In this document: positions 27,308-32,480 of the stretch, in pieces | How positions within the stretch are numbered: the first letter of the stretch is position 1 | How the letters are laid out: each line of letters starts with the position of its first letter | Assembly: GCA_020053105.1 (NCBI GenBank) | Contig: JAGVNU010000076.1 | Span: forward strand, 72,005 to 136,004 | Direction of reading: 5' to 3' | DNA length: 64,000 nucleotides | Origin: Thermodesulfovibrionia bacterium | GTDB taxonomy: Bacteria; Nitrospirota; Thermodesulfovibrionia; UBA6902 | The notes under the pieces: generated by a model | The model's input: the letters and a program-made list of their open reading frames with translations, nothing else | The model's database searches: none | Told to the model about the DNA's origin: nothing | Translations under genes and position numbers: made by a program

Positions 27308-27664
27308 AAAAATTCCCCTTTATCCCTTTGTCAAAAGAGACCAGGGAAAAGTTTGACTTTCACCTTCCTTGGTCCAGCCTTTCTTTCAATATATTTCATT
27401 GATCGTCAGAATTCCTAAAAAAGTATAACAAATTAGAGGTACTATAGCAATTATCGGCATTAGTGAAAAAATCATTAATAATGCCTAATTCCTGTATAGC
27501 TTTTCCTCTCTCCAGCTTATGGGGAAAAGCATCTCAAAAGCCGTCCTCCCCCGTCTTACCCTGTAATTATTGACAGGTTATTTTTCATATAACAATGTTT
27601 CATAATGACTGCATTCGCTTAGGGGACATGACTGAAAAGCCTTTCTTGCCTGGCTATTGTTATT

Positions 27665-30600
27665 ATGAAAAACCGGAAAGACATCATATATTGCATATGG
27701 CTGATATTGTTTGGCCTGGCGCTTAAGACTCCGTCAGAGGCGCAGACTCTTCTCGCGGAATTTAATGATGGCAGAGTGCACTTGACCGGTTCTGCTGCTT
27801 TTGAATGTTACCCTGATGGTTATCCTTACGGCTCATCAGCCGTTGTTACCCGGTTTCATGCGTTTTCTGAATTTGTTACTTCCGGCGGCAAAAACATATC
27901 CGTTAATGTATTCGATGAAAATGCAAAATGCAAACCGCCGGGTTATGTATTTAACTATATTGCCAGCTATTCCGGCGGGTTATGGTATTATCCCACGCCT
28001 GAACCTGTTTGCGGGAAGGCAAGCATGGAAGATGTACATGCCAGAGCTGTAGTCCCGTCGTGGCCGGAGATTATCATGCACGAACCGCAGGACATAGTGT
28101 CAGGACTGACAGATATAACATTCAATTATCAATATTTTCAATATTACGATATAGACAGGCGCATTCAGGTTTATTTGAATAATAATGAAAAAATATATGA
28201 TTCCCAAAATCTGTCTGAAAGCGGCACGATCCAAAAGACTTATGATTTCTCTAATAAAAAAGGATTTATACTGTTATCGGTTATGCAAAGCTGTGCGGGA
28301 CAGGTAGTACCATTTGAGAAACTGCTTTATGTCGAGCCTGAAGACAGTTGTCAGGACAAAGTCGGCAAACCGGTCAGCGTCTCAAGCGGGACGGTATACG
28401 CGAACGAAACAGATTTTTCCGTCAAGGGCGCAATGCCTTTGACATTTATCCGCTACTATGACAGTACTGAAACTATGTCGAGAGATTTCGGCGTTTCGTG
28501 GAGTCATGTTTATGATACGAGAGTTGTCCTCATTGGAGCCAATACGTATAAAGTTATCAATCCTGACGGCTCTGATATTTACTACATAGATAATAACAAC
28601 GATTATATTTATGATGTTGAGTTTCCCAAAGGGGAACAGAGCAAGATTATCAAAAACACAAACGGCTCTTTCACAAGGGACTTTGGGGACGGATCAAAGG
28701 AAGAATTCAATAAATGGGGCTCCCTCACGGCTGTTGAGGACAGCAATGGTAACAGGACTGCTCTTACGCGGGACGGCAGCAACAAACTGACAAAGATCAC
28801 CGGGCCCTATGGCCGGGAGATGAACATTTTATTTGGCACAGGCAATAAAATAAAATCGATAACCGTGCCTGATGGGAGCCCGGGCGGACGGGTATACAGC
28901 TATACCTACCTGCCTTCAGGATATCTTGGCAAAGTGACCTATCCGGACGCAAGCGAGAGAAATTACGAATATGTATACGCCGGTGTCGGCTACCGCTTAT
29001 CGGGCATTAAAGATGAAAAAGGAAACTACATTGAAAAGCACACATACGATACCAAGGGCAGAGCAGTCACTTCCTCTGCCGACGGGACGAATGAACTGCT
29101 GACAATAGATTATGTTGATAAGACCCACACGACTGTCACAGACTCATTTGGACATGTCACGACCTACACGCTTGATAAGACCATGGGAAAGAGCCATGCG
29201 ACAGGCATATCCGGGCCGGGATGCAGGGAATGCGGTCAAGGTAATACTTTTAAATCATATAACAACAACCTGAATGTCACTTCCAGGACAGACGCCAACG
29301 GCAATGTCACTGCGATGACCTATGACGCCAACGGCAATATGCATACAACGACAGATGCCGCAGGGACCGGGGAAGAGAGGACAAACACTTATACCTACAA
29401 TTCATTCGGACAGATACTCACTGCCACTGACCCTGACGGGAATACATCGGAATATATATATGATGCAAACGGTAATATGATTGAGGAAACCGATGCCCAG
29501 GGCAATATAACGACTCATACTTACAGCCCGTACAATGAAAAGCTCTCAACCACAGACCGGAACGGAAATGTAACCACATACACGTATGACCAGTACGGGA
29601 ACAAAGAAACAATTACAAATGGACTGGGCCAGACAACCTACTATATTTATGACCTGATGGGCAATCTGAAATCAATGACAGACGCGAATGGGAATGCCAC
29701 GATTTACGAATATGATCTTAGAGACAGGCTTATTAAAGAAACACGACCGGATGGAGGTGAAGTTGTTTATGAATACGATGCAGCAGGAAATAAAACAGCC
29801 TCAATTGATGCAATGGGCAACAGGACGACATATGTCTATGATAATATCAACCGTCTGATTGAACTCCGTACGGGCGAATTGCCATTCGCCCCTTCAGAAC
29901 TTACGACCTTCACATACGACTCGGAAGGCAACATGATATCAAAGATCAGCAAAGACAGTTCAGAAAGCATACTCACATACGAGAGCTATACATACGACAA
30001 CCATAACCGTCTCGTCAGAACAACATATGCAGACGGCGCCTATACTGAACAGAGTTATGATGCCCTTGGGAATGTCCTCACAAAAAGGGATGAAAACGGA
30101 AACATCACGACAAATACCTTTGACGCGTTAAACAGGCTTGCCTCAGTAACGGACGCAGAAGGAGGCGTTACTGCATACACACATGACAGCAGAGACAATC
30201 TGACATCCGTTACAGACGCTAACGGCAATATGACCTTTTATGTCTACGACAGCCTTAACCGCCTTATTTCAACAGCGAGCCCGGATACGGGCACGACAAC
30301 TTACACATATGACGCCAATGGGAATATGCTTACGAAGACAGACGCGAACGGGGTTACGACAACTTATTCATACGATGCGCTAAACAGACAAACAGTAATC
30401 CAGTTCCCTGATGCATCACAGAACATTTACTATGCCTATGACGATCCGCAGACAGAGAACAGCAGCGGGAAGCTGACCTCAATGACAGACCCCTCAGGAA
30501 CAACATGGTATGACTATGATAAAATGGGACGGCTAATAATGGAGACACGGCGGATAAATGCTCTGAATTACCGTACCGGATACACTTATGATTTAAACGG

Positions 30601-32074: not shown

Positions 32075-32096
32075 ACTTACTTGAGGAAGTCGAACA

Positions 32097-32480
32097 GTGA
32101 AAAACACATCGCTCAAGAAGATCAAAATATTATCTCTCATTTTAGGTTTTTTCTATTGTGGAGGAATAATTTGGTATGGTGAAGTCTTACTCTCATTGCC
32201 TCTTTTGTTAATATTTCTTTTGAGTTCAACTGGGTGTGCCCTAATTATAGCACCTCTGCTTTCTGATACCCTTCTTCGTACAGAGTTCATTAGGGTCTTG
32301 GCTGTAGTACTGATCTTAACTGGAATGGTTGGGAGCCTTTATTCAATAACTGATGCCATTAAATCAACGAGCTATTGGTGGGACGTCCTCGTAGTCATCC
32401 TTCAACATATAGCAATTATTTTTGTGCTCTCTGTAATTGGTCTCAATATTCAGAGATTAAAAAAGAAGCAAAAAAAATGA
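32097..32480 (+). CDS. Small 4-TM membrane protein, candidate cognate immunity protein
   Basis: GTG start 22 nt after the rhs stop, with a GAGGAAG SD. Four hydrophobic helices and a Lys-rich C-terminus. AT-rich like the rhs tip. Confidence 0.5.
   Translation: MKNTSLKKIKILSLILGFFYCGGIIWYGEVLLSLPLLLIFLLSSTGCALIIAPLLSDTLLRTEFIRVLAVVLILTGMVGSLYSITDAIKSTSYWWDVLVVILQHIAIIFVLSVIGLNIQRLKKKQKK

Follow-up and report, generated by a model that had tools for sequence, protein, structure and literature searches.

A Sec-signal Rhs polymorphic toxin with a predicted phospholipase A2 cargo beside a type II secretion operon in Nitrospirota

The DNA analyzed here, hereafter called the window, comprises 64,000 nucleotides of contig JAGVNU010000076.1 from a Thermodesulfovibrionia bacterium of the phylum Nitrospirota. 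It carries an rhs gene whose product combines a Sec-type signal peptide, an immunoglobulin (Ig)-like N-terminal module, and a C-terminal toxin predicted to be a phospholipase A2 (PLA2), and which lies divergently beside an operon for a type II secretion system (T2SS). The locus as a whole is best explained as a Sec-dependent Rhs polymorphic toxin exported by the T2SS, a reading that we hold with about as much confidence as doubt. The T2SS step in itself is plausible but unproven, and there doubt has a slight edge.

Passage through Sec and then the T2SS had been regarded in the initial annotation as an unusual delivery mode, a view not supported by comparison with published work and with homologous proteins. 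A "T2SS/Sec-dependent" class of polymorphic toxins, as described in the text of Table 1 of a survey, is defined by a signal peptide and may contain RHS repeats; it has no signature neighbor genes, and lineage-specific domains may follow the signal peptide (Zhang et al., 2012; PMC3482391). Bcn-A of Xanthomonas perforans is a 1398-aa RHS-family bacteriocin that is active in culture supernatant and that loses this activity when xpsD (gspD) of the T2SS is mutated; its immunity protein is predicted to reside in the inner membrane (Marutani-Hert et al., 2020; PMC7259588). Furthermore, none of the 120 best homologues of the window Rhs protein contains a PAAR domain, and many of them pair signal peptides with Ig/PKD-type modules (Big, PKD, or CarboxypepD_reg). 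Sec-type Rhs proteins in diderm bacteria and a T2SS route for them are thus established ideas, and the current picture of Rhs delivery is unchanged by this locus. Modestly new are the rare Ig-like N-terminal module, the PLA2 cargo in Nitrospirota, and the retention of rhs beside the gsp operon in one clade, together with one further case of such adjacency.

The passage of Sec-exported Rhs cages across the diderm outer membrane is poorly documented, Bcn-A being the one experimental case found, and a clade that keeps rhs beside a gsp operon is a natural candidate for testing this route. The locus extends the Sec-exported Rhs class to Nitrospirota, a phylum in which, to our knowledge, interbacterial weapons have been little studied. 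It also adds its N-terminal module and its disulfide-rich cargo to the catalogue of such toxins.

Architecture of the Rhs protein and its immunity gene

The rhs gene is one uninterrupted open reading frame (ORF) of 1469 codons on the plus strand (27665..32074), located in a window of approximately 45% G + C without a compositional break at the locus. Pfam analysis of its translation detected RHS_repeat (PF05593; E value, 3.8e-102) in 15 stretches, DUF6531 (PF20148; E value, 3e-16) at residues 234–307, and the RHS core (PF03527) at residues 1249–1280. The DUF6531 domain (28364..28585, plus strand) is taken as the Rhs plug region, which we equate with the structural "plug" of solved Rhs cages. 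It is followed by the YD/RHS-repeat shell and the RHS-associated core (28586..31783, plus strand), delimited by Pfam matches and by the motif DPKGL at residues 1369–1373. The core ends in NPINFIDPKGL, whose last residue is 1373, a PxxxxDPxGL-type motif directly before the toxin; from the presence of this motif, the toxin is predicted to be released by autoproteolysis inside the cage. The solved Rhs cages 8h8a, 7q97, and 8qja matched the protein by sequence with E values down to 4e-53, and an orthologue of 1464 aa (L004) aligned with it from end to end at 67% identity.

The N-terminus reads MKNRKD-IIYCIWLILFGLAL-KTPSEA/QT and shows the n-, h-, and c-regions of a Sec signal peptide, with a basic n-region, a 14-residue hydrophobic core (Kyte–Doolittle peak, 2.68), and an AxA-type cleavage site with small residues at positions −3 and −1. 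The signal peptide was therefore assigned to residues 1–26 (27665..27742, plus strand), with predicted cleavage at SEA/QT, from its regions and conservation as judged by hand; this upholds the Sec-type signal peptide that had been proposed for the protein. The cleavage site was in register across all close homologues (PAEA/QS, PAGA/QS, PAEA/GS, and others), and the mature N-terminus was conserved among them as (Q/G)S(L/F)SAxF..DG.V.L.GS.SFEC. No second hydrophobic segment was found elsewhere in the protein. A lipoprotein was rejected for want of a lipobox cysteine, and a signal anchor was deemed unlikely given that the cleavage site is conserved in register.

Between the signal peptide and DUF6531 lies a domain of approximately 200 residues (residues 27–229; 27743..28351, plus strand) that had been described as unrecognized. 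This description stood insofar as the domain has no Pfam match and is neither a PAAR nor a VgrG adaptor, but its fold could be predicted. An AlphaFold2 model built with 12 homologues was all beta, with a pLDDT of approximately 90 over mature residues 1–200, and Foldseek matched it to tandem FN3/Ig pairs in the PDB (E value, ~1e-5). The TM-scores were low, so that the fold class is generic, and the domain is best described as tandem Ig/FN3-like beta-sandwiches. Five cysteines were invariant in the alignment of its homologues. A word-indexed search with the domain alone returned no match, which reflects a limitation of the index, since an exhaustive HMMER scan of 1.84 billion representatives recovered it in 15 clusters. 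Because only these 15 clusters carry it, the domain is considered rare and lineage-specific, and it is not among the N-terminal domains named for the T2SS/Sec-dependent class in the Table 1 text (Zhang et al., 2012). In a related locus (L001:106-4792), the Rhs protein adjoining gspD lacks the Ig-like module and instead has another, Cys-rich N-terminal region that carries a MopE-type metal-binding motif.

The C-terminal toxin (residues 1374–1469; 31784..32074, plus strand) comprises the 96 residues after DPKGL and contains 10 cysteines, the motif CQAHDDCY, and a CGSGW segment preceding the active site. Profile search and motif identify it as a disulfide-rich phospholipase A2 of the secreted type, as judged from sequence. 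Its Pfam matches to PF09056 and PF06951 were sub-threshold (19.5 and 18.7 bits against cut-offs of 34 and 29.4), and a search of the PDB with the single sequence was non-significant. Significant matches came only with a profile of the toxin family, which recovered the secreted PLA2 of Streptomyces violaceoruber (1faz; E value, 6.3e-9) and the fungal group XIII PLA2 of Tuber borchii (4aup; E value, 8.4e-8); nearly all of its 59 matches were PLA2. In the family alignment, C, H, D, C, and Y of C-x-x-H-D-x-C-Y were invariant, including the His-Asp dyad. The toxin thus shares the C-x-x-H-D catalytic motif and a cysteine scaffold with 1faz and 4aup, but whereas those are free enzymes, this PLA2 is carried as cargo in an Rhs cage. 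The cysteine-rich modules at the two ends of the protein point to folding outside the cytoplasm, which fits Sec export and argues against loading onto a type VI secretion system (T6SS).

The Cys-rich C-terminus that follows DPxGL is of at least four kinds among orthologues at the locus linked to gspD, as would be expected from a polymorphic Rhs toxin. The candidate immunity gene (32097..32480, plus strand), recognized by position, hydrophobic segments, and co-variation, starts 22 nt past the rhs stop codon. It encodes a protein of 127 aa with approximately four transmembrane helices and no Pfam match. Homologues with 74–83% identity were found only behind the same toxin type (L004, 74%; L005/L006; L059, 78%), and none was detected in the remaining loci. 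This co-variation with toxin type supports a role of the four-helix membrane protein as the putative immunity protein. Two paralogous copies, 37% and 83% identical to the window protein, follow the Rhs gene in L005 (14786-15725) and likewise in L006, which could be an immunity array. In L059 (834-5193), two overlapping ORFs of 823 and 648 aa make up the orthologous Rhs, reflecting either a frameshift pseudogene or an assembly error; apart from this, toxin and immunity gene are intact there, with identities of 84% (over the C-terminal ORF) and 78%.

With a signal peptide, a lineage-specific N-terminal domain (optional in the class), RHS repeats, a variable toxin, and a downstream immunity gene, the window protein resembles the T2SS/Sec-dependent class as given in Table 1 of the survey (Zhang et al., 2012). 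It shows the defining signal peptide, and no PAAR, two-partner secretion, LXG, WXG, SpvB, or other trafficking domain was detected in it by Pfam, in agreement with the earlier statement that it lacks a T6SS-type trafficking domain. Likewise, no T6SS genes had been seen in its surroundings, and the large ORFs scanned in the 64-kb window included none for T6SS, VgrG, PAAR, Eag, or Tc. SpvB and TcdB mid-N domains and a TcA partner, which are features of Tc TcB/TcC systems, were absent from the protein and its neighbors.

Linkage of rhs to the gsp operon

As initially annotated, an eleven-gene gsp operon is divergent from rhs. It lies on the minus strand from 16082 to 27307 (likelier 27292) in the order D-E-F-G-H-I-J-K-L-M-C. 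The gspD gene (24881..27292, minus strand) encodes a secretin (Pfam Secretin, three Secretin_N, and GspD N0); from its sequence and the ORFs of orthologues, its start is most likely the ATG at 27292 rather than the TTG at 27307. The genes gspE-F-G-H-I-J-K-L-M-C (16082..24891, minus strand) encode the ATPase, the platform, major and minor pseudopilins, a PilM/PilN-type GspL, GspM, and GspC, according to matches to T2SSE, T2SSF, T2SSG, GspH, N_methyl (four matches), T2SSK, PilM_2+PilN, T2SSM_b, and T2SSC. GspI and GspJ were assigned from N_methyl matches together with operon position. The operon showed no gene for the prepilin peptidase GspO. Gene order and sequences were conserved in L001–L005, L011, L013, and L058. 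GspD has an N-terminal extension of approximately 110 Pro/Gln-rich residues (PVPQPP..TQQP-like) before N0, at residues ~25–140 (window ~26888-27235, minus strand); it is variable among orthologues and seemed unusual for a T2SS secretin.

A scan for GspD among species-representative genomes returned four Nitrospirota metagenome-assembled genomes (MAGs), and in 4/4 an Rhs gene was divergent from gspD. MAGs with the locus include GCA_040961595.1 and the assemblies to which JACRQA010000007, QZIL01000044, and DKBK01000114 belong. The genomic context of Rhs homologues added L005/L006, L011, L058, and L059, giving nine distinct loci together with the window. This adjoining gsp operon sets the window-type rhs genes apart from the T2SS/Sec-dependent class as outlined in Table 1, for which no signature neighbors are given (Zhang et al., 2012). 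Where included, GspE of the linked loci was 93–95% identical, and GspD was 71–87% identical. Judged by these identities, the nine loci represent one narrow Nitrospirota clade. On the gspC side, synteny extends to a gene for a sigma-54-dependent response regulator and, in L013, also to radical-SAM and DtxR genes. The flank beyond rhs and the immunity gene differs between genomes, while rhs stays beside gspD in 9/9 loci; rhs is therefore positioned at the edge of a conserved block. In L004 (2136-3107), an IS200-like Y1 transposase gene fused to a DnaA-C HTH comes next after the immunity gene, which is consistent with a rearrangement-prone rhs flank.

The region between rhs and gspD (27293..27664) had been taken as a shared intergenic region of 357 nt. 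With gspD starting at 27292, the gap is approximately 372 nt, and tblastn and blastn indicated that it is the scar of a deleted gene rather than an original shared spacer. What remains of an RR-PAS-HATPase histidine-kinase gene, at 27488-27544 on the minus strand, is its final 19 codons: residues 491–509 of the L004 kinase matched window positions 27544-27488 with 74% identity (tblastn; E value, 8e-5). Colinearity with relatives breaks at ~27544-27556 (blastn), where the relatives hold the kinase gene of approximately 1.6 kb. A kinase of this type, 500–510 aa in length and on the gspD strand, separates rhs from gspD in six of the nine loci (L002–L005, L011, and L058), and it is also missing in L059. 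In L001, a gene for a 176-aa PEP-CTERM protein stands between rhs and gspD; this gene is flanked on either side by a copy of approximately 60 nt from the region upstream of rhs. The intervening kinase gene was thus deleted in the window lineage, and the direct divergent pairing of rhs and gspD is secondary. Consensus scans for promoters and terminators in the intergenic and downstream regions gave nothing usable.

A second adjacency was found in L012 (1-13963), whose GspL is 33% identical to that of the window. There, a gene for a 2490-aa teneurin-like YD-shell toxin and an 82-aa membrane gene lie immediately upstream of gspL-M-C, and a second signal-peptide Rhs gene follows 6 kb downstream, after genes for an S13 peptidase, a 1135-aa secreted protein, and a rhodanese. 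Judging from the loci compared, adjacency of rhs and gsp appears to have arisen at least twice, in the clade and in L012, and to be far from general. It carries no statistical weight, given that independent lineages are few and the cases were selected post hoc. A lack of conserved rhs–gsp linkage in related genomes, which would have refuted the initial reading, was not observed: linkage is kept in nine loci. It is not general, as it is absent from the further loci described below.

Export route and alternative explanations

In diderm bacteria, the T2SS is the standard outer-membrane route for folded periplasmic proteins. Under the reading that we favor, the Rhs precursor would cross the inner membrane via Sec and lose its signal peptide. 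In the periplasm, disulfides would form and the Rhs cage would close round the autoproteolytically released PLA2, after which the neighboring T2SS would push the cage through the outer membrane. Outside the cell, the Ig-like module may bind the surface of a target cell and the PLA2 may attack its membrane phospholipids, while the inner-membrane immunity protein would guard the producer. The gsp linkage of the clade would have arisen once, with the kinase gene in between, and this gene would later have been deleted in the window lineage. The linkage is a hint to the route only, not proof of it.

Bcn-A, compared here by description, is the closest precedent. It is likewise an RHS-family protein of approximately 1400 aa in a diderm, although it comes from Gammaproteobacteria rather than Nitrospirota. 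It requires the accessory ORFs 2 and 4, of which no equivalents were seen at the window locus, and adjacency of bcnA to the xps operon is not reported (Marutani-Hert et al., 2020). The Sec-signal YD/Rhs protein WapA of the monoderm Bacillus subtilis also has a polymorphic C-terminal toxin and a cognate immunity gene (PMC7259588 and general knowledge). However, WapA is wall-associated without an outer membrane to pass, whereas the window Rhs protein still must cross one.

Several points weigh against export by the neighboring T2SS. The adjacency is explained by shared descent, being confined to genomes whose GspE proteins are 93–95% identical. No gsp gene was found near Rhs paralogues and distant homologues of the same N-domain family in L007 and L009; in L010, of the same family, there was none downstream, and the upstream side, cut by the contig end, is uninformative. 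A GspL alignment used to scan metagenomes recovered 42 loci, six of which (L017, L026, L032, L035, L036, and L037) contain complete operons of the same T2SS family at middle distance (GspL 38–59% identical). These six carry an SDR, M48 peptidase, or DJ-1-like gene upstream of gspD, and Rhs similarity was absent from their retrieved flanks (1.6–2 kb upstream of gspD). Substrates of the T2SS are usually unlinked to gsp genes, so that linkage is of little predictive value either way, and we know of no linear motif in T2SS substrates. A cage of approximately 160 kDa is large for the secretin channel. Finally, the signal peptide was called by hand rather than by a trained predictor.

These points favor the explanation that the adjacency is inherited gene order, and that the Rhs protein is exported by Sec without the T2SS, remaining periplasmic or surface-attached, or leaving by vesicles, lysis, or another outer-membrane route. 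We regard this as a credible alternative, although we tend to doubt it. It accords with the restriction of linkage to one narrow clade, with its absence from same-family paralogues and from the mid-distance operons read, with the kinase gene that parts rhs from gspD in most of the linked loci, and with the position of rhs at a synteny-block edge, a place of gain and loss for Rhs elements and an IS200-like gene. Nor do distant Sec-signal Rhs genes stand beside T2SS operons, none being present at three such loci (L055, L056, and L057). Inherited order accounts less well for the persistence of rhs beside gspD in all nine loci though the far flank changes, for the second adjacency in L012, and for the T2SS-dependent activity of an Rhs bacteriocin in Xanthomonas (PMC7259588). 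These observations count for T2SS export, as does the precedent of a Sec/T2SS class in Table 1 of the survey (PMC3482391). Nor did the protein or the window contain a TpsB, type I secretion system (T1SS), or type IX secretion system (T9SS)-signal exporter. Routes by two-partner secretion, T1SS, T9SS, and Tc were rejected, as their signature domains and neighbor genes are absent.

The T2SS of this Nitrospirota lineage, and separately that of L012, might even have become devoted to, or be co-evolving with, the export of intact Rhs cages, forming a contact-independent "T2SS-Rhs bacteriocin" module that the RR-PAS kinase and the sigma-54 regulator possibly control, and in which the Ig-like domain possibly recognizes the T2SS or the target cell. 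We consider this extension unlikely.

Separately, in the distant lineage of L057 (9069-14602), the gene directly upstream of the signal-peptide Rhs gene encodes a 201-aa product that contains a T2SSG (pseudopilin) domain; further gsp genes are lacking within 10 kb.

The Rhs toxins of Gram-negative bacteria that have been studied by experiment are mostly T6SS cargo, and the solved structural homologues of the window protein are likewise T6SS-associated, which would favor an effector loaded onto a VgrG/PAAR spike encoded elsewhere in the genome. T6SS Rhs effectors (8h8a, 7q97, 8qja, and Tse5, 8cp6) indeed share with it the YD-repeat cage, a DUF6531-type N-terminal cage region, a core ending in DPxGL, and an encapsulated toxin. 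However, their N-termini are of the PAAR, prePAAR, or VgrG-binding kind and their loading is cytoplasmic, whereas the window protein has a Sec signal and Cys-rich extracytoplasmic modules. The conserved signal peptide and cleavage site, together with the disulfide-type cysteine patterns of the N-terminal domain and the toxin, led us to reject T6SS cargo. As PAAR, prePAAR, VgrG, and Eag are missing from the protein and the scanned ORFs, and PAAR from its closest homologues, we leave this explanation next to no probability. An anti-eukaryotic toxin, Tc-like or teneurin-like and directed, for example, against protist grazers, rather than an interbacterial bacteriocin, is also quite improbable. 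In its favor, eukaryotic membranes are a target of secreted PLA2 enzymes, Ig/FN3 modules commonly serve as adhesins, and teneurin-like structures match the Rhs shell; nevertheless, a co-varying membrane immunity gene and a toxin that is polymorphic at an orthologous locus are hallmarks of interbacterial polymorphic toxins, and no TcA, TcB, or SpvB components are present.

Other genes in the window

A gene for a sigma-54-dependent response regulator (window 14713-16065, plus strand) converges on gspC. It is 90–94% conserved and has the same orientation toward gspC in every relative with that flank (L001, L003, L004, and L013). Together with the kinase encoded upstream of gspD in the relatives, this regulator may regulate the T2SS.

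No plasmid match to the rhs locus was obtained by megablast, and no tRNA was found in the window. The remaining large ORFs that were scanned encode functions in metabolism and signaling, a type IIG restriction enzyme, cytochromes, and cell-wall enzymes. The restriction-modification gene (window 39966-42833, minus strand) encodes an MmeI/Eco57I-like type IIG protein of 955 aa and is preceded by two small ORFs. Closer to rhs, a VapB-type antitoxin gene lies at window 32728-33000 on the minus strand; a VapC ORF of at least 80 aa was not found in the 250 nt downstream, and this gene at the variable edge of the locus is perhaps a remnant or an orphan.

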